DNA of 64,000 nucleotides, from the sequence record NZ_CP106960.1, one strand, 5' to 3'. The translations under genes and the position numbers were made by a program. This stretch comes from a plasmid. Numbering within the stretch: position 1 is the stretch's first letter; the number at the start of each line of letters is the position of its first letter. Shown piece after piece: positions 1-16,230 of the stretch. A model generated the notes under the pieces. That model saw only the letters and a program-made list of their open reading frames with translations, ran no database searches and was not told the DNA's origin.

Positions 1-61
1 AAAAAGTCTCCAGTACAGATTTTTTGTGAGTCCGGTCTGCTCGAACAGCCCGGAGTGAAGA

Positions 62-88
62 AGCAGAGTTCGCGCTCTGCTTTTTTAT
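62..88 (+). terminator. Rho-independent terminator-like hairpin (GCAGAG-ttcgcg-CTCTGC followed by T6)
   Basis: Perfect 6-bp stem with a T-run read directly in the sequence. Being palindromic it could act on either strand. Confidence 0.45.
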
Positions 89-289
89 TGCCTGAAATCC
101 GGCAATATCCTGCGCGTCGTCTGACGCAAACCTCCCTAGTCGTCCGGCCTCTTCTGCCGTCGTCCTTTTCGGTTTTTTTGCAATGAGTGAAACGCCCTCA
201 TTACGCTTATGCCCTGACGGGGCGACGACGAAAAGCAGGGGTGGAGGCCGGATTATTTGGAGCCTGCGAGAAAAAATCTGGCCGGAAAG

Positions 290-600
290 CGACAGCGGCC
301 CTTGCTGCACGGAGACGCTCCTTCAGCGTGCATAAGTAATGAGAGGCTTTCACGGCAACGACGGACAGGACGGCAGAAGACGCCGGAAACCCGGCGTTCC
401 CTGGCGACCGCCGGGGCGGTCAGTGAAAGCGGCGCTGCCGGAACGGCAGCTGCAAGCGCAAGGGGTTCAGGCATCGCTTGCTATCCGAATGGACGGAGAC
501 GCGAGCGGCTCCGCGTAGCGCGGTGGACACACGTCCACCACGCGAAGTGCAGGCGACGACCCGGCTACGACGGGGAGCCGAAGGTGCCCGCAGTGTAGTT
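290..600. repeat. Partial, diverged copy of the family-A long repeat (shares the ...ccggaacggc(a/t)gctgcaagcg(c/a)(a/t)aaggggtt... core and the agtgtag end)
   Basis: About 60 bp of clear similarity to positions 3020-3080 and 8100-8160, then divergence. GC-rich, no credible ORF. Confidence 0.4.
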
Positions 601-639
601 CGCAAACAGAAAAACTCGTGCAAAACCATCACTGAAAGT

Positions 640-725
640 CGTCGAAATATAAAATTAAAAAAGTGCAGATATTGCACTTTTATGGATTTATTTTTTGCAT
701 AATTTCGCACTAAAATAAGTGCAGT
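640..725. promoter_or_regulatory. AT-rich promoter/operator region with palindromes AAGTGCAGATATTGCACTT and GCACTAAAATAAGTGC upstream of the HTH gene
   Basis: Inverted repeats read directly. They lie immediately 5' of the 736..1014 XRE-like ORF. Confidence 0.35.
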
Positions 726-735
726 TTTTGCAACT

Positions 736-1014
736 TTGGTGGGTTTCCAGATGACGGGTTACGAGCTGCGTTTGTGGCGAAAAGGCATGGGCTGGAGCAG
801 CGATAAAGCGGCGGAAGAGCTTGGCGTAAGCCTGCGCACCTGGAAAGAGTATGAACAGGCGGCAGAAGTAAAACGGGTCGTAGAACTTGCAACGGTTTCA
901 CTGTCCCTCGCTGCGATCTTCCCCACGTGTAGGCTCCGAAAAACAACTAAAGAGCGTGTGCTTAACATGGTTCTTGCACTCCTGAACTCAGCGGGCCTGA
1001 AGGGGCCGCGCTGA
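736..1014 (+). CDS. Small XRE-family helix-turn-helix DNA-binding protein
   Basis: 92-aa ORF. The motif ...SDKAAEELGVSLRTWKEYEQ... is typical of the XRE HTH family. Palindromic operators lie upstream. Confidence 0.5.
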   Translation: MVGFQMTGYELRLWRKGMGWSSDKAAEELGVSLRTWKEYEQAAEVKRVVELATVSLSLAAIFPTCRLRKTTKERVLNMVLALLNSAGLKGPR

Positions 1015-1033
1015 GCGCCGCCCCTGCCCTTCT

Positions 1034-1864
1034 TCAGGCGGCAACGCCTGCGTTGCGCATAAAGTCCATCATGGCCTTGATCCTGCGCTGGCTGTTAAGC
1101 CTTTCTTCGAAGTTATTCAGGTAATAAGCAGGCGTATATCGCACCAGTTTAAACTGCTTCGTCAGGGTGTTGCCTGTAACCACCTCGGCAGCGATTCCCA
1201 GCAACGAAAGCTGTATAAACGCCATATCAGCCGCAATCGGATCGATATCGATACAGCTGGCAAACAGGTGAGCCGATGGATTGACGTCAGCCTCAAGCAG
1301 GCATTCAGCATAGGCAATAATCATCCCGGCAGAGCCGCAGGCCGGATCGCTTATTGTGGCGATACCCTCCCGTGCTATTTTTTCCTGAATACCGGGGATC
1401 AGCATCCGAGCCATCATCGACTGGACGTAATACGGCGTAAAGTATTGCCCCATCCCGCCCGATCCCAGCTCCAGCTCCATGAAAATCGAGCCAATAAAAT
1501 CATGAAATTTTGCATCCAGAGAGTAATACATCAGGGTGAACAGCTCCTGAAGGTTGCGGATATCGGCTGCATCATACCGGGTCAGGATCTTACGACAGTA
1601 CTCCGCTTTCTCCGGTGTTTTAAGACCCACGATGTCCACTTCCCTGGCGGCCAGCCTGATAAAGTCGCTGAAAACATCCCAGCGGTGAAGGTGTCGGGCG
1701 GTCTGATTGAACAGACGAATAAACTGCTTTCGCGCCGTGTCGATAGACATCAGGCGCGGCGCGGCCGGAGGCTGAGGAACGACCGGCGCCGGCTGCACGG
1801 CAGTGCGGACGGCGTCGCTGTGTTTTACCTGGTCAAAGAAGTCTGCAAAGCTCATCTGGGACAC
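1034..1864 (-). CDS. Plasmid leading-region N6-adenine DNA methyltransferase (HsdM-like orphan methylase)
   Basis: 276 aa. Contains the GQYFTPYYV N6-MTase motif (NPPY/DPPY-class context) and PACGSAGMI (AdoMet-binding, motif I-like). Confidence 0.8.
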   Translation of the reverse strand: MSQMSFADFFDQVKHSDAVRTAVQPAPVVPQPPAAPRLMSIDTARKQFIRLFNQTARHLHRWDVFSDFIRLAAREVDIVGLKTPEKAEYCRKILTRYDAADIRNLQELFTLMYYSLDAKFHDFIGSIFMELELGSGGMGQYFTPYYVQSMMARMLIPGIQEKIAREGIATISDPACGSAGMIIAYAECLLEADVNPSAHLFASCIDIDPIAADMAFIQLSLLGIAAEVVTGNTLTKQFKLVRYTPAYYLNNFEERLNSQRRIKAMMDFMRNAGVAA

Positions 1865-1902
1865 GTTTTTCTCCTGCCGCCCCGTCAGGGGCGGCGTTTT
1901 TA

Positions 1903-2157
1903 TCAGTTAAAGGCGCGTTTCAGTTCGAGCGTGCGCAGGACGTGACCCCAGTCGCTTCCGCACATGGCGGGAATGCGAATGCGGCGTTTCTTTTTAAGGC
2001 AGTGCGCGATATGACGACCGAACGCCCGCAGGGTCGGATCGACCTCGGCACTCGGAATGTCTTCCCGGTTGTGGCGGGTTTGTTTGCGTGTAACCGACGC
2101 CGGGGACTGGACAGACAGCGCGGAGGATGTAACAATCTGGACTTCACTGAATTGCAT
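1903..2157 (-). CDS. Hypothetical leading-region protein (about 84 aa counted from an internal Met)
   Basis: ORF co-directional with the methylase and immediately upstream of it. The start is taken at MQFSEVQ. Confidence 0.35.
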   Translation of the reverse strand: MQFSEVQIVTSSALSVQSPASVTRKQTRHNREDIPSAEVDPTLRAFGRHIAHCLKKKRRIRIPAMCGSDWGHVLRTLELKRAFN

Positions 2158-2241
2158 GGTTTGTTCCTTTTGGTGATGGCCGGATTTTCGTTTCGAGGCG
2201 TACAATCCGGCGTGGATGAAGCAGGCGTAAGCCTGCTTTTT

Positions 2242-2601
2242 TCATTTCTGGCTCAGGCTCTCAGGGCAGAACACCGCTTTCACTTTCGCCACGATATCGG
2301 CGTGGTTCAGGTTGCTGAAGTCACGCAGACGGAAATAGCGCTTACCAAAACGCGCAAAAATGTCCGTGACGTTCCCGCAAATCATTTCTGCCATCATGAA
2401 GGTTTCCGTGTCCTGGGCGGTGTCACAGCTCCAGTTGATCATTGGTGGGCGCAGACCCGCCGCGTCGTGGAACTTGTTCACGTCGATCTCGACAGGTGCG
2501 AGAAGCGCCTTCGTCTCACGGCTGCGCCAGTACGCATGCTCAGCTTCGGCGGTGGCGTTCATATCCAGAGAGGCGAATGAATCAGTTGTCTGTAAATGCA
2601 T
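2242..2601 (-). CDS. Hypothetical leading-region protein, 119 aa
   Basis: ORF directly downstream (minus strand) of family-A repeat copy 1. The gene order and the 1-nt spacing to the repeat suggest it is expressed from it. Confidence 0.5.
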   Translation of the reverse strand: MHLQTTDSFASLDMNATAEAEHAYWRSRETKALLAPVEIDVNKFHDAAGLRPPMINWSCDTAQDTETFMMAEMICGNVTDIFARFGKRYFRLRDFSNLNHADIVAKVKAVFCPESLSQK

Positions 2602-2625
2602 GGTTTGTCTCCTTTTCAGTTTTCA

Positions 2626-3148
2626 CATCACCCGTTGAGTTACGGGAGCCGCGGTTTTGACGTTTTGCGGGAACCTGCTGAAGTTTCCCGGGGGATAAAA
2701 CATCACCCGTTTGAGAACCTTCGCCGCAGGTGCGTAAACGCCACGGGCCGAGGCAGATGTCCGGGGCGGACGCCTGAAGTTTTCGCATGCGAAAAGTTTT
2801 GGTGGTCGTGCGCCAGCATTCACCCTGGACAGCCAGGAGGACTGTGGTGTTCTCAGCACCCGGCGGAGGGACTCAAAGGGGTGAAAAGGGACCGGACGGA
2901 ATGGGCAGGGGCCCGCCGCAATGACGGAAAGCCGCGCGCGGCGAAACGGCGTTGCCCCCTACATCACGGCGCGTCTTCTGGTGACGGGATGCAGGGAGCG
3001 CAGGAACGGCGCGACTGAGCGGCGCAGCCGGAACGGCTGCTGCAAGCGATAAGGGGTTGCGTCAGGATGGAAACCCGCTGCCCCGGAGGGGCCGGGCAGA
3101 GACGGCGAAGCTGGCTCTGTGCGTAGCATGACAGCCGCCCGGACGCCC
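2626..3148. repeat. Family-A long direct repeat copy 1 (about 523 bp; ssDNA-promoter/ssi-like element of the leading region)
   Basis: About 97% identical to 7699..8221. GC-rich with internal inverted repeats. Lies upstream of a minus-strand gene block. Confidence 0.7.
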
Positions 3149-3428
3149 AGTGTAGAAAAGAAAAGACGATGAAACGAATTAGGTACTATGCCCTGATCGA
3201 CGGGAGACTCTGTAGGGGGATAGTGCCCGACGCCAGGGAGTGGAGCGACGCGCCGCAGGCGCGTTGCCCTGCCCCGTTCGGCCTTCCGGTTTGTTCATGC
3301 GAGCGGTCGCGACCGTAAGGAAAAAGGGGCTGCCGGTAAACCGGCACCCCCTTCATAAAGGCGCTTGTGGTAAATTAGATCACACCAGAAGCCCTGAAAA
3401 GGCGGGGTTTCCCCCGCCTCACAGGTTG

Positions 3429-3587
3429 CTACTTACCGGATTCGTAGGCTAGCACGGCAGCGACCTCCCGTTTTCCGTCCTTTAAGCGAATTTCGCAAAG
3501 CGATTTCCGCGTCAGGTAAGTGAATGCCAGCAGTGTGAGACACACTATCAGTACGCACCAGATAACGGTACTTCGCGGCAGTTTCAT
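3429..3587 (-). CDS. hok: Hok-family host-killing toxin (52 aa)
   Basis: [52 protein letters not shown] is near-identical in pattern to R1 Hok and F FlmA. Confidence 0.85.
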
Positions 3588-3644
3588 AGCCTTCTTCTCC
3601 TTGCGCAGAGCGCAGTAAGCGGCTAATCTAGATGTGTCTAGCAT
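3429..3644 (-). CDS. mok: Mok (modulation of killing) overlapping reading frame
   Basis: 71-aa ORF in the same frame extending 5' of hok, as in hok/mok/sok loci. Confidence 0.6.
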
Positions 3645-3660
3645 GTAGATCGGCCTCGGG
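3595..3660 (+). ncRNA. sok: Sok-like antisense RNA (position inferred only)
   Basis: By analogy with hok/sok, the antisense RNA overlaps the mok start on the opposite strand. Promoter not verified. Confidence 0.25.
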
Positions 3661-3832
3661 TTAATTTGAAAAAAATTACTCGGGGCTTTTCTCTTTCTGC
3701 CTCACAGCATCCAAACCACTGAAACGTATGAGGCAAAAAGCCTCAAGCGCCAACGCCATTATATCCTTCTGTCGATGTTCTGCCCAGGAATACCCGCCTG
3801 AAACCCGGATAAATCCTCACCTTTTTTCGGCA

Positions 3833-4063
3833 TTATTCCCCGTTACCGGTTCCGTTTGCCCACTCGTCGATCTGCTCATCCAGCGCCTTCAGATGCTGAT
3901 CAACGCTTTCAGCAAGCCGCTCGCTTTCCGTCTCCAGCCAGCCGCTAAGTCCGTCCCATTGACATGACATTTTATTCAGCTTTTCTAACATGCTTTGCAG
4001 CTGTCTACGCTGTCTGCGTGCTGTCTTCAGCTCTGCTTTACAGGGATTGTTTCTTATGGCCAT
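3833..4063 (-). CDS. Hypothetical 76-aa protein between psiA and hok (FlmC-position ORF)
   Basis: ORF only. Its position matches the flm locus of F-like leading regions. Confidence 0.35.
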   Translation of the reverse strand: MAIRNNPCKAELKTARRQRRQLQSMLEKLNKMSCQWDGLSGWLETESERLAESVDQHLKALDEQIDEWANGTGNGE

Positions 4064-4785
4064 ACCGACCTCAGCGTAATTTTATTCGGTACCATCCAGC
4101 GCTCCAGCTCTTTCGCCACCGGTGACGCGTTCTCCGCCACATCCCGCACGTCAGCAACGATTTCATACGCCCGGTCGTACCAGCTTCTGACCAGATGAGA
4201 GAGCGACGGACAGCGTTCTGTCCATGCCCACAGCATCCGCTGCATGTCATAGTCCCGGACATCTTGCTGCGACCACGATTCATACCATGCCTGGAGCGTT
4301 TCCGGCGTCTGGAATGCCAGATCGATCTCAGCCTGACCGACCAGATTCTGGTACGCATCCTCTTTCTCGCGCGCGCGCCGAGTTTCCTGACGGGTGTACA
4401 GGTCCGCTTCTCGCCTGTCCCGCTTTACCCTGCGATCGCTCAGACTGAATGCCTTCTCAGGAAACATGATTTGCACCAGTCGCGTATCCAGCGGCGCATA
4501 GCAGTGGCGACCCCGCGAGCGAATCAGGGTATCAAACGCTTCCTCATAGCGTACCAGGGGGGTCTTGTCCTCTTTCAGCCAGTAGACCCCCGGCACCTGA
4601 TTGATTGATCGAGTACTTAACTTACTGCTGCCGGTCAGAATCCGGAAAAATGCACGAGCATAGGGATACGGCTGCCGGGAACGACGACCAGAATTTTCCG
4701 TCTCCTCTTCCACGATCATGATGGCGCGTAGAGCCGCTTCACGCTCGGGCCGCTGCGTGACGAGTGAGAGATGACGCGGGATCAT
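4054..4785 (-). CDS. psiA: Plasmid SOS inhibition protein A
   Basis: 243 aa, immediately downstream of psiB with a 4-nt overlap. Size and position as in F and R100. Confidence 0.8.
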   Translation of the reverse strand: MIPRHLSLVTQRPEREAALRAIMIVEEETENSGRRSRQPYPYARAFFRILTGSSKLSTRSINQVPGVYWLKEDKTPLVRYEEAFDTLIRSRGRHCYAPLDTRLVQIMFPEKAFSLSDRRVKRDRREADLYTRQETRRAREKEDAYQNLVGQAEIDLAFQTPETLQAWYESWSQQDVRDYDMQRMLWAWTERCPSLSHLVRSWYDRAYEIVADVRDVAENASPVAKELERWMVPNKITLRSVWP

Positions 4786-5210
4786 AATTTCACCTCATGC
4801 TTCAGGAAGGCGATGATGTCGGAAGGGATATAGCCATCACGGTGGCGTACATCTGCCACACTCAGGGCGTGATTCAGTTCTGACACGTTGAAATAGTCGC
4901 ACTGGCGAACGCAAACCACGTGATGGCCCTTTCCTGACATCATCAACAGAAGCCACTGGTCACTGGCCTCTCCCGGACTGCACAGCACCATCTGAAAGAG
5001 ACCGTGGGTCGGTGCGAAACGGACCTGAACCGGGAACAGCCCACCGAACTCGCTACCGTACTCCCCGAGAATGTCCCAGTTATCCGGGAGTCTCAGCGCC
5101 ACCATTACGGTATGAGTCAGTTCGCGGCGGAAGGAATAGCCTGCCGAGCGGGCAGTTTCGAAATCATCGGCGGTCATCTCTGCCAGGCTGAAATTTGTTG
5201 TGCTCATCAT
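4782..5210 (-). CDS. psiB: Plasmid SOS inhibition protein B
   Basis: 142 aa. RRELTHTVMVALRLPDNWDILGEYGSEFGGLFPVQVRFAPTHGLFQMVLCSPGE closely matches PsiB of F. Confidence 0.9.
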   Translation of the reverse strand: MMSTTNFSLAEMTADDFETARSAGYSFRRELTHTVMVALRLPDNWDILGEYGSEFGGLFPVQVRFAPTHGLFQMVLCSPGEASDQWLLLMMSGKGHHVVCVRQCDYFNVSELNHALSVADVRHRDGYIPSDIIAFLKHEVKL

Positions 5211-5248
5211 GTTCTCCTTATTGCCGCCCCGAAGGGCGGCACTCCTTA

Positions 5249-7264
5249 TCAGGCAGCCAGTGTGGTGTTGTCAGCGTCGGTTTCGGTGTCAACGGAAGCG
5301 GTCTCTTTCACAGCGTCAGACTGCGGACCCTGTAGCCATGCCGGAACCCAGCGGGTATCTTTCAGCCAGAACTCAGCATGTTCCGCCGCGTCGCCCTTTT
5401 TCATTTTCTCGGCGTCCTTCGCTGCCCCGACACTTCCGGCATCATTCATTGCGGCCACAATCTGGCTGTGCGTGAGGCTGCTGAAATATCCCACTTTTGT
5501 TGGTTGCCACCAGTCACGCAGATGGAAGCCAATCGCCTTTTCCAGATCGTCGAGTGGGCTGCGCGACGTATGCCCCATATCGCGGGTCTGAACACCGTCA
5601 ACGGAACAGGCCGTGCAATACGCCATGAGCGACATCAGCAAATCACCTTTCAGGCTAAAGAAGGTTGTGAAATCCTTACGCCATCCTTCCGGCAGCAGTT
5701 CTTCCAGTCGGGCCTGTTCTGTCATCAGCGCGGTGTAAGCGAGGCCCTCATTTCCGGATGGGGCTTCGCGCGTCAGCGAGTAGTGCGAGACGTTAACGCT
5801 GATCCCGAAAGGATGCTTTTGTGGGCTGTAGCCGGAGAAAACGCTACAGCACATACGCCAGACCATCAGGGGAACGGCTTTTTCAGGCTGTTGCATCAGC
5901 GCAGCCTGGACAGCGAGAGTACGCTCAGATGACATTTTGGTGAGTAGCGGAACGCTGATCCCTTCTGCGGCATCGGGCTGACTTACATATGTGACGCTGC
6001 CTGACGCTTTCTTATCTTCATTCTCTGCGTCATCCTCCGGCAGATCAGCCTTACGGCACACGCCACGCTGCACGTACAGCTCACCCTCCATAAAGCTGGC
6101 TACCACGCCAGCATTCGACTTAAGCGCATCAGTCCATCCACGCACTTCTGCGGCATGTTCAATGAGGTTCATTTCGCTCAGGGCGGCGTAAGCCTCGTCA
6201 CTGTTCTCGTCGAGTGCATTAAGCTGATCGGTCAGTTCATCCAGACGACGGCTGTCATCCGGGTTGTATACCGCATCCGGCACCGGAAGCAGCAGGTAGT
6301 CGTTATCATTTGTACCGTAACGGCTAATTCTGGACGGACGGCCCATCGCCCATGCCCAGCCCTCTTTCTGCTGGATTTCGAGGGCAATTTTGTCCAGTTT
6401 TTCGGCCATCAGGGTGTCAACAAGCAGCCTGTCGACGGTCCCGTCGCCCTCCTGCGCGCTGAATAAATCTTCACGGACCACACCACCTGCCAGCTCGTAC
6501 GCCTCACGACCGATGAAGCCAAAACGGGCATCCGTAACGGCGATTTCACTCTCGGTGATCTGCCTTTTGACTAAATGGGCTGACGCACAGGAATAAGTCG
6601 CCATCAGGTTTTCATACACGGCGACCTGACGAACCTGATCGCTTTCAAGGCACAGCGCCTGACACTGCTCCATATCAAGCTTGTCTTCTGCCAGCAGTTT
6701 CAGCAGTGACGGTGCGAGGGTGGCGAGTTTCAGCATGCGCTGTACATGGCGGGAGCCGAACCCCAGTTCATCACCAATCTGCGAAGCGGTTTTGCCCATC
6801 TCAGCCAGGGTGCGGAAGCTCGTGATTTGCTCTGCCGGGTGCATTGCCACACGCTGCTCATTTTCCGCATGAGATGCCGCAGCGGCGATTTCGCGCGATA
6901 CGCGTTTAACAGGCACCACGTCGTCCGGCTGGATCAGGTTGTCTTCAAGGAGCAGCGCAAGGGCCGTGGTACGGCGACCGCCACAGGCCACGCCGGATTT
7001 ACAGTCTGGCATATCATGGACAACGAGGTTCTGAAGCAGACCAATCGCAGCAATGGACGCAGCCAGTCCGCGAACGCTCTCCTTTGAATAGGGAATGGTT
7101 CTGGCATTCAGGTCTGAAATGACCAGATTTTTGACTTTCTCATACTCGATCGGTGTGGCATCGAGGATGGATTTCAGCACCTCCGGCGCGATGGCCTGCG
7201 CAGGGCTGGCTTTCTTACGGCTGGATTGTTTAGGGCTTTTTGCTTTAGACTCGGCAACTGACAT
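5249..7264 (-). CDS. ParB-like nuclease-domain protein of the leading region (671 aa)
   Basis: N-terminal ParB/Srx-like region (ISDLNARTIPY..., GGRRTTALA). Size and position as the about 650-aa ParB homologue of IncF leading regions. Confidence 0.8.
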   Translation of the reverse strand: MSVAESKAKSPKQSSRKKASPAQAIAPEVLKSILDATPIEYEKVKNLVISDLNARTIPYSKESVRGLAASIAAIGLLQNLVVHDMPDCKSGVACGGRRTTALALLLEDNLIQPDDVVPVKRVSREIAAAASHAENEQRVAMHPAEQITSFRTLAEMGKTASQIGDELGFGSRHVQRMLKLATLAPSLLKLLAEDKLDMEQCQALCLESDQVRQVAVYENLMATYSCASAHLVKRQITESEIAVTDARFGFIGREAYELAGGVVREDLFSAQEGDGTVDRLLVDTLMAEKLDKIALEIQQKEGWAWAMGRPSRISRYGTNDNDYLLLPVPDAVYNPDDSRRLDELTDQLNALDENSDEAYAALSEMNLIEHAAEVRGWTDALKSNAGVVASFMEGELYVQRGVCRKADLPEDDAENEDKKASGSVTYVSQPDAAEGISVPLLTKMSSERTLAVQAALMQQPEKAVPLMVWRMCCSVFSGYSPQKHPFGISVNVSHYSLTREAPSGNEGLAYTALMTEQARLEELLPEGWRKDFTTFFSLKGDLLMSLMAYCTACSVDGVQTRDMGHTSRSPLDDLEKAIGFHLRDWWQPTKVGYFSSLTHSQIVAAMNDAGSVGAAKDAEKMKKGDAAEHAEFWLKDTRWVPAWLQGPQSDAVKETASVDTETDADNTTLAA

Positions 7265-7336
7265 AGTTAATACCTCCGGTGTTAATGATTGTCCGGCCCT
7301 GCGGAGTGACCGCTCCGGCAGGGCACCTTCATACTG

Positions 7337-7660
7337 CTATTTTCTGAATCCGTAGCTTGCAAGTGCGCGATTCATCCACGCCCCGCCATCTTTCTGGAAA
7401 TTCCATACACGCTCTTTCAACATCCCGTCTTCATCACGGACAACAAGCTGAAAATGCGTTTTCTGATCGTTCTCAATACCGACGTTGGTGTACTGCGCCG
7501 CAACAGCCCTCGCCTCTTCTCGGGTAAATGCCCCTTCAGGCAGCACCACAGGCGCGGTGGCAACGTCAGCGTTCAGCAATGCCGCTAGTTCAAGTTCTTC
7601 AGCGGTCGGTTCGCGTAGCGACACGGACTGATTCAGAAATTCCTGTAATGTTTTGCCCAC
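7337..7660 (-). CDS. Hypothetical leading-region protein, 107 aa
   Basis: First ORF downstream (minus strand) of family-A repeat copy 2. Confidence 0.5.
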
Positions 7661-7698
7661 TGCATTTCTCCTGATAAAAGGGTCTGGCCTTTAAAACC

Positions 7699-8221
7699 CA
7701 TCACCCGTTGAGTTACGGGAGCCGCGGTTTTGACGTTTTGCGGGAACCTGCTGAAGTTTCCCGGGGGATAAAACATCACCCGTTTGAGAACCTTCGCCGC
7801 AGGTGCGTCAACGCCACGGGCCGAGGCAGATGTCCGGGGCGGACGCCTGAAGTTTTCGCATGCGAAAAGTTTTGGTGGCCGTGCGCCAGCATTCACCCTG
7901 GACAGCCAGGAGGACTGTGGTGTTCTCAGCACCCGGCGGAGGGACTCAAAGGGGTGAAAAAGGACCGGACGGAATGGGCAGGGGCCCGCCGCAATGACGG
8001 AAAGCCGCGCGCGGCGAAACGGCGTTGCCCCCTACATCACGGCGCGGTTTCCGGCGACGGGATGCAGGGAGCGCAGGAACGGCGCGACTGAGCGGCGCAG
8101 CCGGAACGGCTGCTGCAAGCGATAAGGGGTTGCGTCAGGATGGAAACCCGCTGCCCCGGAGGGGCCGGGCAGAGACGGCGCAGCCGGCTCTGTGCGGAGC
8201 ATGACAGCCGCCCGGACGCCC
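7699..8221. repeat. Family-A long direct repeat copy 2 (about 523 bp)
   Basis: About 97% identical to 2626..3148 by eye, with a few SNPs. Confidence 0.7.
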
Positions 8222-8271
8222 GGGGCAGCAAAAAAAAGCCGGAAAAACTAACTGTTATCTTGCTGAAAATT

Positions 8272-8526
8272 TTATTTTTTATTCGCTTCAGCCATCTCAG
8301 CATATTGCGGGTCGCTCGCTTTCGGCAACTGCAGGCTCAGCTGGCGGTAGTGGCGCAGCCTTTCCATAAAATACTCGCGAAGATGCACCGGCTGCTCGCG
8401 CGCGATAATTTCAGGTACCACCGGCTGATTCAGGCGCTCTTTAAACGCGACGCCCGACGCGGCCAGATCTACCGCCACCTTGTCCTGATCCTCTTTTGAT
8501 AGTTTTGAAAGATTAATTTCGCTCAT
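8272..8526 (-). CDS. Hypothetical small protein, 84 aa
   Basis: ORF in the operon downstream of ardA. Confidence 0.4.
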   Translation of the reverse strand: MSEINLSKLSKEDQDKVAVDLAASGVAFKERLNQPVVPEIIAREQPVHLREYFMERLRHYRQLSLQLPKASDPQYAEMAEANKK

Positions 8527-8683
8527 ATTTTTACCTTGTTAATTTTTTTACTGACCTGCGCTGCCAGATCATGCAGGGCGGCGTGTCGCGGCGCCGAAGG
8601 CGCAGTGACAGCCGCCGGCAGGCAAGGCCTGCCCGGGTTTTCCCACGGGCTGACAGGCGGAGGTGCCGCCTGCCTGGATCACC

Positions 8684-8872
8684 TTAACGTTGATCCTGCC
8701 GGATAAACTGTCCGCCTATGTATACCGCAGACTGGCAGCTCATAAAATGGCAAATTTCGTCGATCACTTCTTCGGTTCTCAGCTCCCGTAATCCGGCCTC
8801 ACGGCGGCCGGCGTTAATTCGTTTTTTGTACTGACGCAGGATGTCACGGGTTTGTGTATCAAGTTTCATCAT
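8684..8872 (-). CDS. Hypothetical small protein, 62 aa
   Basis: ORF immediately downstream of ardA. Confidence 0.3.
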   Translation of the reverse strand: MMKLDTQTRDILRQYKKRINAGRREAGLRELRTEEVIDEICHFMSCQSAVYIGGQFIRQDQR

Positions 8873-8913
8873 TCTGTCCTTTTATGCAGGGGGACTATCC
8901 CCCTGCCCTTAAA

Positions 8914-9414
8914 TCAGTTCTGAAAAACGTGGCCTTCCAGGAACACCAGACCGTTCATAAACATATCCCGGCCGTAAGCATCATAATCAAAGTAACCGCG
9001 CAGCGATTCAGGCACCTCATTAAGCAAGCCGTGCTCCTGCACGTAGTCATACGCATAATCTTCCTCGCTTGCGGCTTCACCACACCAGGCATCTTCAAAC
9101 GCGTCGTAATCACATTCACCGGTGAACTCCACCCAGGCAATGAAAGCCTCGTCCTTACCGTCATCAACCGCGCGCTTGTAGGCCTCAATAAAAGCCCAGT
9201 CAACCGAGCTTTCTGAAGCAAATTTATCCGGAATGCCCTCCCAGTCCTGGAACATCAGTTCCGGATCGGATTCGTTTGCGTGCAACGCATGGCATGCCTC
9301 CATAAAATCTGACTTATCGTCAAAATCGGTGAGATCGAACCATTTACCGAAGAGACTGCCGCAGTTGTATTTGTGGTAAGTACCAACATAAATCGCCGGG
9401 GTGGTAGTGCTCAT
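8914..9414 (-). CDS. ardA: Antirestriction protein ArdA (type I R-M inhibitor, DNA mimic), 166 aa
   Basis: MSTTTPAIYVGTYHKYNCGSLFGKWFDLTDFDDKSDFMEACHALH...ELMFQDWEGIP is the classic ArdA N-terminus. The ORF-track 5' extension runs into the repeat and is rejected. Confidence 0.9.
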   Translation of the reverse strand: MSTTTPAIYVGTYHKYNCGSLFGKWFDLTDFDDKSDFMEACHALHANESDPELMFQDWEGIPDKFASESSVDWAFIEAYKRAVDDGKDEAFIAWVEFTGECDYDAFEDAWCGEAASEEDYAYDYVQEHGLLNEVPESLRGYFDYDAYGRDMFMNGLVFLEGHVFQN

Positions 9415-9454
9415 AAAAATCCTCCGTTGCCAGTGTCGTCTGAGTTCCGGCTTA

Positions 9455-9680
9455 CGCCGTGCCGACACGACAGCCCGACTTCGAGCGGAAGATGCAAGGG
9501 CGACACCGCAGGCCGCAGCGCAGATAAAAGCGAGGACGTTCTGGACGGTTCTCCCGCGAAACCTGAGCGGGAGAACGACGGGAAGAACGGCATCAGGCGT
9601 AAAAATCTGCGACCGGGCGAGGATGGCGGCGAAGCGACCCCTTGCATCTGGAGCGTTCGGGCTAAAGTGAAGGCACGGCG
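9455..9680. repeat. Family-B hairpin repeat copy 1 (about 226 bp; the ends cgccgtgcc...ggcacggcg form a long imperfect inverted repeat)
   Basis: Three copies in the window. Internal long-stem inverted symmetry. Located 40 nt upstream of ardA. Confidence 0.75.
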
Positions 9681-9803
9681 TTAGCCGCAGACCGCACGGA
9701 TGTTTTTGCCTGCGTGGCCGTAACATCGTGGAGGTCACGCCGGTAAAGCGGAGCGTGCGACATCCTTTTTGCTTAAAAGCGGGGCGCTCTGCCCCGCCTC
9801 AAT

Positions 9804-10583
9804 TCAGGCTGCGATCCGGATCCCGGAAAATGATTTCATCATCACATCGATTTCCGCTCGGGCTGTTTTCACAACATCCCGTAACCAGTGGCGGTCAAAC
9901 CAGACACGTGACGGGCTGTCAGGATGCCGAAGGGCATAGGGAACATGCGTCTGGCCGACGGTGCGCCCGTTACACTCCAGGCGGATCTGCAGACGGCGGA
10001 AGGTTTCTTTCTCGTCGAGCACGGCTTTCAGCCTGGCATCCAGCGTATCGTTGTCCCATTCAGCATCGTCCTGAACCTGCTCCACCTCTGTCACCGTCAG
10101 GGTGAAATTGCGTGTGCGGCGGGTCAGTACCAGCGGTTCTGTGGCAGGCCGCAGCGCTTCGGTCAGGCGATACCCTGCCGACGCCACGCAGCTGCAGACG
10201 TGATTGATTTCGTCTCGCAGTGCTTTCAGCAGGCAGAGGATTTGTGGCGTATTCATCCCGGCAGGACAGTTGTCGTATTCCAGTGAAATGGTTCCGGCAT
10301 GTGCCTTTCGGTGCCCCAGCGAGTTCCTGTAAAGGCGAACGACCAGTTCGCTTCTGTGGATCAGCGGCAGCAGCATCTGCACTGCCTGTTCGCTCATTAA
10401 TCCCCGCAGGGCGATTTCAGGTAACAGTCGCTGCAGTTGCGCGGCATCGAGCTGGCCATAAAACGCCACGCCCTCCCCACGCGAGTAATTCAGGCTGGTA
10501 TCGATATCCATCGTGGCTGGCCAGCCACGCGAAACCAGTGTGTTGCGGGTATGGCGGTGCATAAAGCGATAAGCGGTGGTCAT
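9804..10583 (-). CDS. Hypothetical leading-region protein, 259 aa
   Basis: ORF bracketed by family-B repeats 1 and 2. No recognisable motif. Confidence 0.55.
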   Translation of the reverse strand: MTTAYRFMHRHTRNTLVSRGWPATMDIDTSLNYSRGEGVAFYGQLDAAQLQRLLPEIALRGLMSEQAVQMLLPLIHRSELVVRLYRNSLGHRKAHAGTISLEYDNCPAGMNTPQILCLLKALRDEINHVCSCVASAGYRLTEALRPATEPLVLTRRTRNFTLTVTEVEQVQDDAEWDNDTLDARLKAVLDEKETFRRLQIRLECNGRTVGQTHVPYALRHPDSPSRVWFDRHWLRDVVKTARAEIDVMMKSFSGIRIAA

Positions 10584-10616
10584 GATGTTCTCCTTATACT
10601 GATGCGGCGACGTCTT

Positions 10617-10842
10617 CGCCGTGCCGACACGACAGCCCGACTTCGAGCGGAAGATGCAAGGGCGACACCGCAGGCCGCAGCGCAGATAAAAGCGAGGACG
10701 TTCTGGACGGTTCTCCCGCGAAACCTGAGCGGGAGAACGACGGGAAGAACGGCATCAGGCGTAAAAATCTGCGACCGGGCGAGGATGGCGGCAAAGCGAA
10801 CCCTTGCATCTGGAGCGTTCGGGCTAAAGTGAAGGCACGGCG
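10617..10842. repeat. Family-B hairpin repeat copy 2
   Basis: Near-identical to 9455..9680 and 11770..11994. Confidence 0.75.
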
Positions 10843-10938
10843 CTGATATCCGCCGCGCTGGCGCGGCATAAAAAGCGGAGTAAACGACATCCTTGTGCGT
10901 TGAAAATACCGGCCAGCAAATCCTGGCCGGGCATAGCG

Positions 10939-11274
10939 TTATCGGGTGTACTCCTGCCATTCCATATCAAATCTGTCCCTGACCACCGGCAATTCGGGCG
11001 TACCGGTGACGATCCAACTGTCGAGGAACTTCAGTCCACGCAGCAATGTATTTTCAACTTCATCCAGTAACACTATGCTGCTGAACCAGACCTTTCTCTC
11101 AGGAAATAGCCAGCAGTGATCTGCGCTGTCCTCTTTCACATCTGGCCACCAGGTTCGCCCCATAGACATGGCGCCAGCTTCGGCCAGGGCAAGATTTTCA
11201 GCTTCAATAAGCATATAAACATCGGTTTCAGTGCAGTGGGTTTCGGTCTGAAATCCTGTCAGCCAGGTGTTCAT
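10939..11274 (-). CDS. Hypothetical protein, 111 aa (second gene of a 2-gene operon)
   Basis: Overlaps the upstream ORF by 4 nt (ATGA), indicating translational coupling. Confidence 0.5.
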   Translation of the reverse strand: MNTWLTGFQTETHCTETDVYMLIEAENLALAEAGAMSMGRTWWPDVKEDSADHCWLFPERKVWFSSIVLLDEVENTLLRGLKFLDSWIVTGTPELPVVRDRFDMEWQEYTR

Positions 11275-11738
11275 AGGTCTTTTACCTCATTGATGGCAAA
11301 CCGCAGGTGATCCCAGTTAAATCCATAGTTAGCATCGTGCGCGTAATAAGCGCGCTCCATCGCCGCTGCAATCGTCGCGCTATCAAGCGAGCTATCGACC
11401 GCAAGAAAATCATCTTCAAGCCAGAATGTGCCGGTGCAGAGCGCGTCCTGGGGGTATTCCTGCAGACGGGTCATCATTCCTCCCACAGTCATCTCTCGCC
11501 GCAAAATATGGGACGGGGTAAGCACAGAATCTGCGACATCGTTCCAGCACCATTCTTCATCATCGGGTACAGACTGCTGAATGGTCTGGAGCTGCACACC
11601 CGGCATCCTGGAAAGTCGTTCCAGCACATCCCCCAGATACAGTCTTTCACCGCTACCGTCTTCACTTCCCAGGTAATGGTTATTGAGATAGACGGCAAAC
11701 TCGCCATTATCGAGATCAATACAGGTCAGTCTGAACAT
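11271..11738 (-). CDS. Hypothetical acidic protein, about 155 aa (first gene of a 2-gene operon)
   Basis: ORF track 11271..11783. The start is placed at the Met (MFRLTC...) just outside repeat B3. Confidence 0.5.
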   Translation of the reverse strand: MFRLTCIDLDNGEFAVYLNNHYLGSEDGSGERLYLGDVLERLSRMPGVQLQTIQQSVPDDEEWCWNDVADSVLTPSHILRREMTVGGMMTRLQEYPQDALCTGTFWLEDDFLAVDSSLDSATIAAAMERAYYAHDANYGFNWDHLRFAINEVKDL

Positions 11739-11769
11739 TACGCTCTCATCCTCATTCGGCACCCAGTTG

Positions 11770-11994
11770 CGCCGTGCCGACACGACAGCCCGACTTCGAG
11801 CGGAAGATGCAAGGGCGACACCGCAGGCCGCAGCGCAGATAAAAGCGATGACGTTCTGGACGGTTCTCCCGCGAAAATTGAGCGGGAGAACGACGGGAAG
11901 AACGGCATCAGGCTTAAAATTTGCGACCGGGCGAGGATGGCGGCGAAGCGAACCCTTGCATCTGCAGCGTTCGGGCTAAAGTGAAGGCACGGCG
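11770..11994. repeat. Family-B hairpin repeat copy 3
   Basis: Same as above. It is followed by a conserved about 60-bp tail that is also present after copy 2. Confidence 0.75.
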
Positions 11995-12220
11995 CTGATA
12001 TCTGCCGCCCTGGCGCGGCATAAAAAGCGGAGCAAGCGACGTCTTTCATAAGGCACCAAATTTGAGATACTGCATCATAGCGGTGCCTGTTATGTATATA
12101 TTTTTTGGTAAGAAACTTGTTATAGTCGGTAGACTGTAGTGAAATTTTTGTTCAACCTTCTGAAGTTTTTTCTTATTATCATTCCTAATGCAGATATATT
12201 ATTAATTAACAGGATTTTTT

Positions 12221-12898
12221 ATGGCCGGAAGAGAAGATGGTTTAAAGGCACTTTTTGACACGCGATTTATAAGCGCTTGCAGCTACTTTAAAGGCATGGA
12301 AGTTAGAATGCCACTGAATGGGCTAGATCAATTTTTTAATGCGGACACTTTATTTTCAACATTCGATAAATTTTTCATAGTTGAATTTAAATCTTATCAA
12401 TCCAGCCTGAATGCAGAAAGAAAGAAGCCTACGGCTTGCCAAATTTGTTGCGACTTACCTGTTAGCCCTACAATAATACCTTTACATGATGCCTGTCACT
12501 TTGCTATGTGGGGGAATATAGAAGAGACTTTGCTCTACGGAAATTACGACATATACAGAAAATGCGTCTGCAATTCATCTGTATTACCTACGTGCCGAGG
12601 GGCTGCGCAGTCCATGTTTTCACCAAACCCTAAACATTACGATGTTCTTGCCAGATTAGCAGGGCGAAACAACGCAGGATTAAATGCAGATGACTTTCTG
12701 ATTTATCTTGAATGGCTACTTGGCAGGAGAGGAGGAAGTGGCGAAGGTCGTGGAGATTTCAATGCAGCAATATATGCGACATCAACTACTCATGCTGTTA
12801 ATGGAGTTCCGTTCAAAAGCATGGCTAGCCTACAACGGTGGTCGAAGGGGGTTCGCCCAGGCAAACGGAATGATGACTGGGATAGCTTCAGTTTTTAG
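12221..12898 (+). CDS. Hypothetical protein, 225 aa, AT-rich codon usage (orphan)
   Basis: ORF with an AT-rich 180-bp upstream region. Composition differs from its neighbours. No motif recognised. Confidence 0.5.
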   Translation: MAGREDGLKALFDTRFISACSYFKGMEVRMPLNGLDQFFNADTLFSTFDKFFIVEFKSYQSSLNAERKKPTACQICCDLPVSPTIIPLHDACHFAMWGNIEETLLYGNYDIYRKCVCNSSVLPTCRGAAQSMFSPNPKHYDVLARLAGRNNAGLNADDFLIYLEWLLGRRGGSGEGRGDFNAAIYATSTTHAVNGVPFKSMASLQRWSKGVRPGKRNDDWDSFSF

Positions 12899-12923
12899 AT
12901 AATATTCATTTTATGACGATCTG

Positions 12924-13215
12924 GGTAATGACTCCAACTTACTGATAGTGTTTTATGTTCAGATAATGCCCGATGACCTTGTCATGCAGCTCCACCGATT
13001 TTGAGAACGACAGTGACTTCCGTCCCAGCCTTGCCAGATGTTGTCTCAGATTCAGGTTATGTCGCTCAATGCGCTGAGTGTAACGCTTGCTGATAACGTG
13101 CAGCTTTCCCTTCAGGCGGGATTCATACAGCGGCCAGCCATCCGTCATCCATACCACGACCTCAAAGGCCGACAGCAGGCCCAGAAGACGCTCCAGCGTG
13201 GCCAACGTGCGTTAC
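12924..13215 (-). mobile_element. Truncated IS1 (3' about 290 bp including the IRR and the InsB C-terminus)
   Basis: The IS1 terminal repeat ggtaatgactccaacttactgat is present. The 88-aa ORF equals the C-terminal half of InsB. Confidence 0.75.
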
Positions 13216-13309
13216 CTAACAATAAACCTGTTTAAATATCCAGATAAAAACATTCAATCTGGGTCAAATGAGTGATACAGTTTCACCCATAAGACCCAAT
13301 GGAGGCAAT

Positions 13310-14743
13310 ATGTCTGAATTTGAATTACTGGCGCAGGATCTGCTTGAGAAAGCAGAAGCGGAAGAACAACTGCGACAGGAAAATGATAAAAAGCTGCTCG
13401 GGCAGGTGCTGGAAATCTATGACCAGAAGTACGTGGCTGAACTGCTTAGAAAAGTTGGTAAAAATGAGTGGAGTCGCGAGACTCTTAATCGCTGGATTAA
13501 TGGTAAGTGCTCACCTAAGACGCTGACGTTAGCCGAAGAGGAACTTCTACGAAAAATGCTTCCGGAAGCGCCTGCACATCACCCTGACTATGCCTTCCGG
13601 TTTATTGACCTGTTTGCTGGGATTGGAGGTATACGGAAGGGCTTCGAAACCATCGGTGGCCAGTGCGTTTTTACCAGTGAATGGAATAAAGAGGCTGTGC
13701 GCACATATAAAGCTAACTGGTTTAACGATGCTCAGGAACACACTTTCAATCTCGATATTCGGGAAGTCACGCTCAGTGATAAACCTGAAGTACCTGAAAA
13801 CGATGCCTATGCTTACATTAATGAGCATGTGCCGGATCATGATGTACTTCTAGCAGGTTTCCCCTGTCAACCGTTCAGCCTTGCGGGCGTAAGCAAGAAA
13901 AACTCGCTCGGGCGCGCGCATGGTTTCGAATGTGAGGCTCAGGGAACGCTTTTCTTCGATGTGGCGCGTATTATACGCGCAAAAAAACCTGCCATCTTTG
14001 TTCTTGAAAACGTTAAAAACCTGAAGAGCCATGACAAGGGTAAAACCTTTAAAGTCATCATGGATACCCTCGACGAACTGGGCTATGAAGTTGCGGATGC
14101 AGCTGAGATGGGCAAAAACGATCCTAAAGTTATCGACGGAAAGCACTTTTTACCTCAGCACCGAGAACGTATCGTTTTGGTCGGTTTCCGTCGTGATCTG
14201 AACATTCACCAGGGCTTTACCCTGCGCGATATTAGTCGTTTTTATCCGGAACAGCGTCCGTCATTTGGCGAACTGCTGGAACCCGTGGTTGACAGCAAAT
14301 ATATACTGACGCCGAAACTCTGGGAGTATCTCTATAACTACGCCAAAAAGCACGCAGCTAAGGGTAACGGATTCGGTTTTGGCCTCGTTAATCCTGAAAA
14401 TAAAGAAAGCATTGCCCGTACGCTTTCTGCTCGCTATCACAAAGACGGGTCTGAAATTCTGATAGACCGTGGCTGGGATATGGCCACAGGTGAAACAGAC
14501 TTCGCGAACGAAGAAAATCAGGCGCATCGGCCCCGCAGGCTGACTCCACGAGAGTGCGCGCGCCTTATGGGTTTTGAAAAAGTAGATGGCAGGCCTTTTC
14601 GCATTCCTGTGTCAGACACTCAGTCGTACAGGCAGTTCGGTAACTCCGTAGTGGTGCCCGTGTTTGAAGCCGTAGCCAAACTGCTTGAACCTTATATCCT
14701 GAAAGCGGTTAATGCCGATTCGTGCAAGGTTGAACGAATCTGA
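13310..14743 (+). CDS. ecoRIIM: C5-cytosine DNA methyltransferase M.EcoRII (CCWGG), 477 aa
   Basis: Motif [11 protein letters not shown], motif IV PCQPFS, ENVKNL. Size and convergent partner match the EcoRII system. Start set at MSEFELL. Confidence 0.85.
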
Positions 14744-14776
14744 TCGCTCCTCCCGGTATTTATGCCGGGAGATAAT

Positions 14777-15991
14777 CTATGGAATATCTGCGTAAAGCCC
14801 TGTCAGCTCAGCAATAAACGCACCTAGCGTCATTAGCTCAGCTCTCACCGCCTCCGGGTATTTTTTGTGCAGCGATGATGGCACGACCAATCTGACACCC
14901 GACTCCCGCATCTCCCGATATTGAGCCAGAGAAACTCCCTCTTGGAGTGTAAACAGATGCACCTGATGAATTTTATCGGCCTCATTCAGTATCTGACGCC
15001 AGCGATCCTTACAGGTAGTCTTGACTGCCAGCATGCGCAGATTTTCTACGGGAAACTCAGTATCGTGGTAAGCCCCTGCGGAAGGGAAAAGGAAATCGGG
15101 TTTTTTATTACCTTCTGTGATGGCCTGCGTCGCAAAGTGTCGCAGGCCGTGCTCAATGAATAGATGCTCCAGGTGCAGTTCCAGCGACTTCCCGGCTCTG
15201 GATTTACGGCGATTGCTGACAGAATTGGCCAGCGCAATAAATTCATCCACAGAGCCAAATCCTTTCCGGATGATATCCAGAACATGCAGTTCCTCAACCA
15301 ATAGAAATATGTCGTACTCCACGCGCCGGCGGTCAAGAAGTTGCTCATCCGGATCAAGGGAATTTTTCACATAATGGCTGGCTGCATACTGAATAATTTC
15401 ACTTCCCGACGGAAAGCGCAGGTGCCAGTCTTCAGGTAGAATATATTTATGATTTACTGGCGCTTGCTGTAGAGATAGTCCGCCTAGAATCTGTCCTGCG
15501 GGGCCGGATATAAGCGCTCCGGGTATAACTTCACCAATAGCGGTCTCAATGACGTCCTCTTCATCAGTGCTGGCGCATACCCAAATATTTACTTCCTTAC
15601 AGTCCCCCCCTTGCTCATCAAGCTTGAAAGCCAGGAGCGTCAGAGCCCCTGTATTTTCAGGATTCTGAAGTGGGCTGCCTCTACCCCAGCGGGTAATCCT
15701 TTTTTCATTCCGGGTTTTACCAAAATGACGGCTGTTATAATAAATTGCCCGGGCTTCGCTGTCAGGGCAATCATGCGATGACACATGTGCGGTGAGAAAA
15801 ACCGAAGGGTTCAGTTCACGGGTATGGTTGATAGACGGAAAGAGTTTTTCAACGATACCTGAAGGGATATAAAGCCCTACCTGGTGACCACCTGTTGCGC
15901 CGGTATCGTTGGCGGAAAGGCGTTTGATGTAGACGAAGTAATTCTCACATGCGATCTCAAGTAGCCAGTTGTGGAAAACCGACATAAGCAT
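14777..15991 (-). CDS. ecoRIIR: Type IIE restriction endonuclease R.EcoRII, 404 aa
   Basis: 404 aa, tail to tail with the methylase. The N-terminus (M)SVFHNWLLEIACENYFVYIKRLSANDTG is consistent with EcoRII. Confidence 0.8.
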   Translation of the reverse strand: MLMSVFHNWLLEIACENYFVYIKRLSANDTGATGGHQVGLYIPSGIVEKLFPSINHTRELNPSVFLTAHVSSHDCPDSEARAIYYNSRHFGKTRNEKRITRWGRGSPLQNPENTGALTLLAFKLDEQGGDCKEVNIWVCASTDEEDVIETAIGEVIPGALISGPAGQILGGLSLQQAPVNHKYILPEDWHLRFPSGSEIIQYAASHYVKNSLDPDEQLLDRRRVEYDIFLLVEELHVLDIIRKGFGSVDEFIALANSVSNRRKSRAGKSLELHLEHLFIEHGLRHFATQAITEGNKKPDFLFPSAGAYHDTEFPVENLRMLAVKTTCKDRWRQILNEADKIHQVHLFTLQEGVSLAQYREMRESGVRLVVPSSLHKKYPEAVRAELMTLGAFIAELTGLYADIP

Positions 15992-16230
15992 CCCCTGTTA
16001 CCCTGAAACTCTACTCACCATTTTTTCATGATTATATACAAACAGCCAGAAAGGCTGTTACAGACGATTTGATCTGCAACCTATTGGTTAAATTAATGTA
16101 TCAAAAACGATGGTTTTTGTGACAGTCTTGAAAAGTCCTGACTTCTCCCGAAAAATGACTCCCCTCATGTAACAAAACTCGTTACTGTATCAACATAACA
16201 ATAACCCCATAACTAATTAGCGAGAAAAGA

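Follow-up and report, generated by a model that had tools for sequence, protein, structure and literature searches.

RESULTS

Three copies of a repeated element precede three gene units

The plasmid with the sequence record NZ_CP106960.1 was analysed here over a stretch of 64,000 nucleotides (nt) of one strand, 5' to 3', which we refer to as the window. Between positions 9455 and 11994 it contains three copies of a repeated hairpin element, which stand directly upstream of ardA, of an open reading frame (ORF) of 259 amino acids (aa) and of a two-gene unit. A reading of the letters alone (the original prediction) had proposed that these repeats are promoters active in single-stranded DNA (ssDNA), and we followed up this proposal by folding, alignment and comparison with characterised plasmid elements. 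The copies and the genes behind them are:

9455-9680, + strand: hairpin copy 1 (ssp2/class 2-type), 226 nt; the stem reaches 9448-9687
10617-10842, + strand: hairpin copy 2, 226 nt
11770-11994, + strand: hairpin copy 3, 225 nt
8914-9414, - strand: ardA, 166 aa (Pfam ArdA, E = 1.2e-34), first gene after copy 1
9804-10583, - strand: 259-aa ORF, YffB-like (32% identity to F YffB, E = 1e-22), unit of copy 2
11271-11738, - strand: 155-aa ORF, likely start ATG 11738, first gene of the copy 3 unit
10939-11274, - strand: 111-aa ORF, second gene of the copy 3 unit

The three copies are direct repeats, with a gapped identity of 99.1% between copies 1 and 2 and of 96.5% between copy 3 and each of the other two; the value of 74% that an ungapped repeat finder returned for copy 3 is due to a 1-nt deletion. 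The three 226-bp copies of the original prediction were confirmed, except that copy 3 is 225 nt long. As had been proposed, each copy is bounded by the exact inverted termini CGCCGTGCC...GGCACGGCG, its outer arms of about 75 nt are imperfectly complementary (49 matches in an alignment of 80 columns), and 40 nt and 33 nt separate copies 1 and 2 from the ATG codons of ardA (9414) and of the 259-aa ORF (10583). The overlap of copy 3 with the start of a 170-aa ORF does not exist: it appeared because the longest, GTG-started ORF was called, and the ATG at 11738, which is also the start used by NCBI for the identical 155-aa protein, leaves a gap of 31 nt. Homology between copies 2 and 3 continues for about 50 nt rightwards beyond the element. 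A scan of the entire window with a profile of the family found these three copies and no others.

On the - strand, the 259-aa ORF is followed at its 3' side by a hairpin (9780-9798) and TTTT, and the 111-aa ORF by a terminator-like hairpin (10909-10930). Neither the 155-aa nor the 111-aa protein matched any entry in Pfam, NCBIfam, PHROGs, PADLOC or PDB sequences. For the 259-aa protein, Pfam, NCBIfam, PADLOC and PDB sequences gave no informative match, and PHROGs gave only family 8919, to which no function is assigned. The clusters of all three proteins are named 'hypothetical', and AlphaFold, run on the single sequence of the 155-aa protein, gave a model too poor to be used (predicted local distance difference test score, pLDDT, of 38). 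ORFs that cross the repeats on either strand had no Pfam match and, owing to the 1-nt indel, change frame between the copies, and we therefore treated them as spurious. In records such as CP020526.1, CP043768.1 and CP051807.1, a 'DUF1472 domain-containing protein' or a 'hypothetical protein' is annotated over homologous hairpins; such entries probably arose by spurious translation of the ssDNA promoter.

The first 12 kb of the window are 99.6% identical to the plasmid pE61_003 of Leclercia adecarboxylata, by which the origin of transfer (oriT), located outside the window, was placed to its left. From left to right, pE61_003 carries MobC and oriT (beyond the window), DUF932, an N6-methylase, hok/sok, psiA and psiB, then a 671-aa ParB-like protein, DUF905, a homologue of the theta subunit of DNA polymerase III and ardA, followed by the 259-aa ORF and the pair of 155 aa and 111 aa. 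Every leading-region gene lies on the - strand and points to oriT, a layout shared with pESBL and F; the + strand is therefore the transferred strand and the template. In pE61_003, an IS110 insertion sequence (IS) and a DUF2971 gene are inserted between copies 2 and 3.

The transferred strand folds into one long, covarying hairpin

Folded as ssDNA, the + strand between 9440 and 9700 forms a single long hairpin, in agreement with the long imperfect hairpin that had been predicted, with a free energy of -72.8 kcal/mol (z = -6.4); none of 200 shuffled sequences was as stable. The - strand of the same region reached -64.6 kcal/mol (z = -5.3).

Is this stem conserved across the family? In an alignment of 19 diverged members with identities down to about 40% (alignment A2), where pairs were counted on the consensus stem, 95.4% of the cells were paired, compared to 33-40% when the 3' partner was slid by 1-3 columns. 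Compensatory double changes were found in 20 of the 42 pairs versus 5-8 in the slid controls, and the observed values for pairing and covariation were matched by none of 500 shuffles. The wobble pairs were distributed asymmetrically: 35 cells contained G.T, which pairs only on the + strand, versus 10 cells with A.C. In every member tested, the fold of the transferred strand was more stable than that of its complement. Together, the excess of G.T wobbles and the difference in stability suggest that folding of the transferred strand is favoured.

At its tip, the hairpin of copy 1 carries an apical extension, equivalents of which are present in the other two copies:

9548-9576, + strand: perfect 10-bp apical hairpin GTTCTCCCGC-GAAACCTGA-GCGGGAGAAC of copy 1; present in ssp2-type members, absent from versions of 159-172 nt

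Two further strings, GCCGCAGCGC (9512-9521) and GACCGGG(C/T)GAGGA (9611-9623), are invariant without covarying and face each other in the upper stem. They have equivalents in copies 2 and 3, are conserved in members of 220 nt as well as in those of 159-172 nt, and may be a recognition site for a protein.

The 3' arm carries invariant, putative promoter motifs, and the duplex lacks the -11 A

Throughout alignment A2, the 3' arm follows a common pattern of TTGnnn (18/19 members), exactly 15 nt and TAnnnT (19/19). TTG and TAnnnT are the best-conserved positions of the sigma-70 -35 and -10 hexamers. Since the 5'-3' direction of the 3' arm within the hairpin faces the gene, this arm is the non-template strand. 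The putative promoter elements, all on the + strand, are:

9642-9647: putative -35 hexamer TTGCAT of copy 1, 3' arm (TTG in 18/19 members)
9663-9668: putative -10 hexamer TAAAGT of copy 1, 3' arm (T, A and last T invariant in 19/19)
9460: predicted template start of copy 1, which pairs with A9675, 7 nt past the -10 hexamer, from sigma-70 geometry
10804-10809 and 10825-10830: putative -35 and -10 hexamers of copy 2; predicted template start 10622
11956-11961 and 11977-11982: putative -35 and -10 hexamers of copy 3; predicted template start 11775

With transcription starting 7 nt after the -10 hexamer, as predicted from the sequence, the leaders would be about 37-46 nt long (46 nt for copy 1).

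In the folded members of A2, a 3x3 internal loop invariably takes up positions -11 to -9, between a paired T at -12 and the paired positions -8 and -7. The A at -11, being always inside this loop, would therefore be pre-melted. In the duplex form, the sense strand is the complement of the 5' arm and reads (C/T)TGCAT-19 nt-TGTCGT or TTTTAT, which never provides both A-11 and T-7; for the window copies, the duplex reads TTGCAT-19 nt-TGTCGT and lacks the -11 A. Moreover, in 12 of the 19 members a G.T wobble presents TTG in the hairpin where the duplex has CTG. A simple scan of the three intergenic regions found no consensus duplex sigma-70 promoter. The arm-specific motifs and the looped -11 A offer an explanation, from the sequence, of why the promoter should need ssDNA.

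The element belongs to the family of F ssp2 and of the class 2 promoters of pESBL

Earlier work on pESBL reported transcripts in early transconjugants and six operons with ssDNA-promoter hairpins, with start sites mapped by 5' rapid amplification of cDNA ends (RACE) and an early induction of leading-region operons of at most ~500-fold (Wen et al., Nucleic Acids Research 2025, PMC12672017). The same study distinguishes class 1 (ssi/Frpo), class 2 (upstream of klcA and ardA) and class 3 (upstream of the M.EcoGIX methylase). In plasmid F, the site upstream of yfgB/ardB is the ssp2 of Fraikin et al. 2026 (bioRxiv 10.64898/2026.01.09.698686) and of an article in Nucleic Acids Research (2026, PMC13478746), and was described as acting both as a promoter and as a roadblock to replication (Fraikin et al. 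2026, bioRxiv).

Using BLAST, we located the window element in pESBL-EA11 just upstream of klcA and ardA (L007 7106-7228, E = 3e-10; 14053-14175, E = 4e-9) and in plasmid F (NC_002483) just upstream of yfgB/ardB (E = 2e-12); the region upstream of the pESBL methylase operon matched more weakly. The matches to pESBL and F were 70-71% identical over about 128 nt, and the full-length alignment shares the invariant blocks.

The F ssp2 resembles the window copies in its closing stem (GCCGTGCC/GGCACGGC), in the TTGCAT-15-TAnnnT pattern of the 3' arm, in the strings GCCGCAGC and GACCGGGTGA and in the apical CCGCGAAACCTGAGCGG hairpin. It is 223 nt long with -64.7 kcal/mol, compared to a folded span of 223-224 nt and -62.5 to -66.6 kcal/mol for the window copies, and likewise lies on the transferred strand, with 30-45 nt separating it from the leading-region gene downstream and with the same box in its 3' flank (see below). 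The two differ in the -10 hexamer, TAAGAT in F ssp2 and TAAAGT here, and in number: F has one copy, before ardB/klcA, whereas this plasmid has three, before ardA, the yffB-like gene and the two-gene unit. The class 2 elements of pESBL, an IncI1 plasmid, belong to the same family, with one copy before ardA and with several near-identical copies per plasmid being possible. However, pESBL has two copies and its yffB-like gene is the last of the methylase operon, while here the yffB-like gene has a promoter of its own.

A 159-nt hairpin upstream of the methylase operon in pESBL (L007 3280-3438, - strand) and in F (L011 2664-2822, - strand) shares the closing stem, TTGCAT-15-TAACGT and both conserved strings, but is devoid of the ~65-nt apical extension with its CCGCGAAACCTGAGCGG-type hairpin and of the flank box. 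By our matching of coordinates, it is probably the class 3/ssp3 element. Having the basal promoter module in common with class 2, it appears to be a short relative and not a class apart. The candidates Frpo' 4, Frpo* 1 and Frpo* 3 from an insect-gut metagenome island (Samuel et al., Nature 2024) are of the same family and strand and align over the whole hairpin; they had been proposed from structure and motifs only and are 44-54% identical to the window copies.

Are the repeats related to class 1 as well? The class 1 elements (F Frpo1/Frpo2 = ssiD and ColIb-P9 ssi1-3; Masai & Arai 1997, Bates et al. 1999, Couturier et al. 2023) are likewise long imperfect hairpins of the transferred strand that rebuild a -35 and a -10, lie in the same region and orientation and have a related 3' flank box, AGCGSAG..CGAC. 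Yet they are about 330 nt long, have an A/T-rich apical part and lack sequence similarity to the window repeats. Indeed, the F ssiD and ColIb ssi1-3 references, taken from Supplementary Table 2 of Samuel et al. 2024, gave no match at 9455-11994 and matched the window only at ~2626-2961 and ~7697-8034, and we rejected a class 1 identity of the repeats on this ground. Among the references of Samuel et al., the only direct matches at the repeats were the unverified candidates Frpo* 1 and Frpo' 4. Of the ssi or primosome-assembly architecture that had been suggested, the hairpin principle holds, while the sequence is unrelated to Frpo/ssi and a PriA-type site is unsupported. A search of positions 1-16000 against Rfam (E <= 1) found nothing at the repeats, only sok (3585-3752) and a weak AS-pc01.

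How widespread is the family? A sensitive BLAST search of PLSDB gave at least 5000 matching plasmids, and the 151 places found among 5426 complete E. coli genomes were without exception plasmid-borne, with no chromosomal occurrence. In 10 related plasmid regions that were inspected, the orientation relative to the genes was constant, and most copies were located directly upstream of ardA, klcA/ardB, DNA methylase or yffB-like genes. While copies on the window's plasmid are 96.5-99.1% identical to each other, copies upstream of ardA elsewhere (L003, L008, L009) are only 73-76% identical to the ardA copy of the window. This much higher identity within than between plasmids suggests concerted evolution or a recent duplication. 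As direct repeats 1.15 kb apart, the copies could recombine and thereby delete or swap cargo.

A conserved box follows each probable ssDNA promoter

To the 3' side of each repeat, we found a conserved box, which in class 2 elements is preceded by a small GC hairpin:

9745-9766, + strand: flank box AAAGCGGAG..CGACATCCT of copy 1, common to all three copies
10872-10893, + strand: flank box of copy 2, preceded by a small GC hairpin at 10851-10866
12024-12045, + strand: flank box of copy 3, common to all three copies
2997-3015, 8070-8088, 9747-9761, 10874-10888 and 12026-12040, + strand: window matches to AGCGSAG-N(3-12)-CGAC (pattern search)
L011 6402-6419, 8216-8235 and 13605-13624, - strand: matches in F (pattern search)

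The pattern AGCGSAG-N(3-12)-CGAC, which was derived post hoc from the window sequences, has exactly five matches in the window, all on the + strand and one 3' of each of five hairpins of both classes; shuffled sequences gave 0.98 expected matches, and none of 100 shuffles reached five. As an independent check, 18 kb of F contained only three matches, all on the transferred strand and 30-70 nt 3' of Frpo1, Frpo2 and ssp2. To our knowledge, no earlier description treats this box as a cis signal. Possible roles are priming, the stalling of complementary-strand synthesis or its release from a stall, and the termination of read-through on a single-stranded template.

The two hairpins of class 1 in the window are Frpo/ssiD-type elements at ~2626-2961 and ~7697-8034 (+ strand), about 70% identical to F ssiD, which precede operons on the hok/psiA/psiB side and DUF905-ParB-psiB. 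Together with the three class 2 elements, this gives the window five probable ssDNA promoters of two classes. A sok antisense RNA (3585-3752, - strand; Rfam RF01794, 97.8 bits) is flanked by these two class 1 elements, an arrangement also seen in F. In a folding scan that covered 16 kb, further ssDNA folding peaks of the leading region were seen on the + strand at 276-575 (-79.3 kcal/mol per 300 nt) and 1701-2000 (-70.6 kcal/mol per 300 nt). At 423-457 there is a match to the flank of the Frpo* 5/7 candidates of Samuel et al., and 230-640 is structured (z = -4.4) without forming a single clean hairpin. To the right of copy 3, between 12221 and 15991, the leading region is replaced by an accessory mosaic. 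It comprises a 225-aa ORF (12221-12898, + strand) without a family match, an IS1-like fragment, a Dcm-type cytosine methyltransferase (13268-14743) and an EcoRII-like endonuclease (14777-15991), and is followed by tet(A) and mer.

DISCUSSION

Based on the homology to class 2/ssp2, the covariation of the stem, the invariant TTG and TAnnnT at the -35 and -10 and the location on the correct strand, all of which support the ssDNA-promoter architecture put forward in the original prediction, we consider it very likely that each of the three repeats is an ssDNA promoter of the class 2/ssp2 type. During conjugation, the + strand would enter the recipient as the transferred strand, and the 225-nt element would fold upon itself, so that the base of the hairpin would rebuild a sigma-70 promoter with the 3' arm as non-template and the 5' arm as template. 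RNA polymerase would initiate roughly 5 nt into the closing stem and move leftwards, transcribing three units: the pair of 155 aa and 111 aa, the 259-aa ORF, and ardA with the genes after it. Synthesis of the complementary strand would then remove the hairpin and leave a duplex that lacks the -11 A, so that expression would stop.

The hairpins may have a second effect. In F, the nascent 3' end was found at the foot of the ssp2 stem, with a delay that was insensitive to rifampicin and relieved by UvrD, and swapping ssp2 for ssp3 kept transcription but abolished the block (Fraikin et al. 2026, bioRxiv 10.64898/2026.01.09.698686). Priming was assigned to ssp1/Frpo, while ssp2 delays conversion (Fraikin et al. 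2026, bioRxiv; PMC13478746). The window copies carry the apical extension that the short ssp3-like versions lack, which makes them likely roadblocks too. As with ssp2 of F, complementary-strand synthesis is probably held up at each hairpin until UvrD unwinds the stem, and the three copies would likely act as roadblocks in series, with a replisome travelling from right to left reaching copy 3 first. Such stalling would keep the oriT-proximal genes single-stranded and expressed for longer. For the window copies, we infer the start position, the shut-off in the duplex and the roadblock activity.

Several points weigh against reading the repeats as ssDNA promoters. The overall identity to the F and pESBL elements is about 60%, and BLAST aligns only the 3' half (~71%). 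The covariation of a palindrome alone cannot separate ssDNA from RNA or a cruciform, and the argument from strand asymmetry depends on just 35 versus 10 cells. A weak point is also that the -35 and -10 hexamers were assigned by our own inference from the sequence, with a spacer of 15 nt on the non-template arm that is short for sigma-70; across the same interval, the template arm has 19 nt. Furthermore, ssDNA-specific transcription, mapped starts and roadblock come from the literature on homologues rather than from this plasmid, and the roadblock was demonstrated for F ssp2 alone.

Could the hairpins be mainly structural roadblocks or timers for complementary-strand synthesis, three in series, with a promoter that is weak or secondary? 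The stall of F ssp2 at the stem end is independent of transcription and relieved by UvrD, and the window copies equal F ssp2 in length, stability and apical hairpin. However, a plain obstacle would require neither the invariant TTG and TAnnnT nor the unpaired -11 A, the same elements drive transcription in F and pESBL, and the shorter relative ssp3 is an equally strong promoter without roadblock activity. We regard a roadblock with a minor promoter as possible, though rather unlikely; a roadblock function is more likely additional to the promoter than an alternative to it.

The remaining explanations have far less to recommend them. An intercistronic hairpin that acts at the RNA level, in processing, stability or termination of a polycistronic - strand mRNA, would fit with elements lying between co-oriented genes and with a - strand that also folds well (-64.6 kcal/mol, z = -5.3). 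Yet the 35 G.T versus 10 A.C cells and the more stable + strand fold of all members tested point to the other strand, the terminator-like hairpins at 9780-9798 and 10909-10930 already close the upstream units before the element, and TTG and TAnnnT, invariant on one arm, would be left unexplained; we judge it very improbable. Equally slight is the probability we give to a duplex-DNA operator palindrome for a leading-region repressor, as in the CUP-controlled regulon of IncN plasmids. The CUP (conserved upstream) repeats of the IncN plasmids pKM101/R46 precede several leading-region genes including ardA, and a repeat before each leading-region unit, ardA among them, does resemble this arrangement. 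In the R46 sequence, we saw repeats of 430-650 bp; the family profile had no match in R46 (nhmmer, E <= 10), and the CUP region upstream of ardA does not fold into a single long hairpin. A homology to the IncN CUP repeats was rejected on both grounds. Moreover, operators are short, whereas here arms of about 70 nt with conserved mismatches covary, and no regulator gene is linked to the repeats. Least probable of all is that the repeats are miniature inverted-repeat transposable elements (MITEs) or remnants of IS or transposon ends, placed between genes by chance, as the terminal inverted repeats, the three copies and the many related plasmid copies might suggest. Neither target-site duplications nor flanking direct repeats were found at any of the three copies, and no IS, transposon or other mobile-element feature is annotated under any match. 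Over the 10 regions, the orientation is constant and most copies lie tens of nt before a gene start; none of the 5426 E. coli genomes has a chromosomal place, and the covariation spans the entire 70-nt arms instead of the tips alone. With no target-site duplications, no chromosomal copies and a fixed orientation, we rejected an origin from a MITE or IS as far as the sequence can tell, and with it the fragment of an IS or transposon end that the original prediction had named as its refutation.

Beyond the reading of the repeats as ssDNA promoters, we speculate, with considerable reservation, that each ssDNA promoter is part of a three-part module of hairpin, small GC hairpin and AGCGSAG-N(3-12)-CGAC box, and that the three homogenised copies would then provide serial roadblocks as well as recombination-prone borders of cassettes with uncharacterised establishment genes. 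The modular anti-defence island that had been proposed stands insofar as each module has one ssDNA promoter; a known anti-defence gene, ardA, is present in only one of the three modules.

In summary, the family was proposed in 2024 and characterised in 2025-2026, and the copies described here extend these findings to another plasmid lineage while leaving the current understanding unchanged. A single plasmid can thus hold such an element in three near-identical copies; in F, the element has the additional effect of delaying complementary-strand synthesis. Recognising the family by sequence shows, in plasmids without annotation, which strand is transferred and how far the leading region extends, and flags the genes behind the copies, the YffB-like 259-aa protein and the pair of 155 aa and 111 aa, as candidates for early establishment or anti-defence. 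The choice of plasmid genes that are expressed in the earliest minutes following conjugation, ahead of restriction and the other defences of the host, lies with ssDNA promoters.

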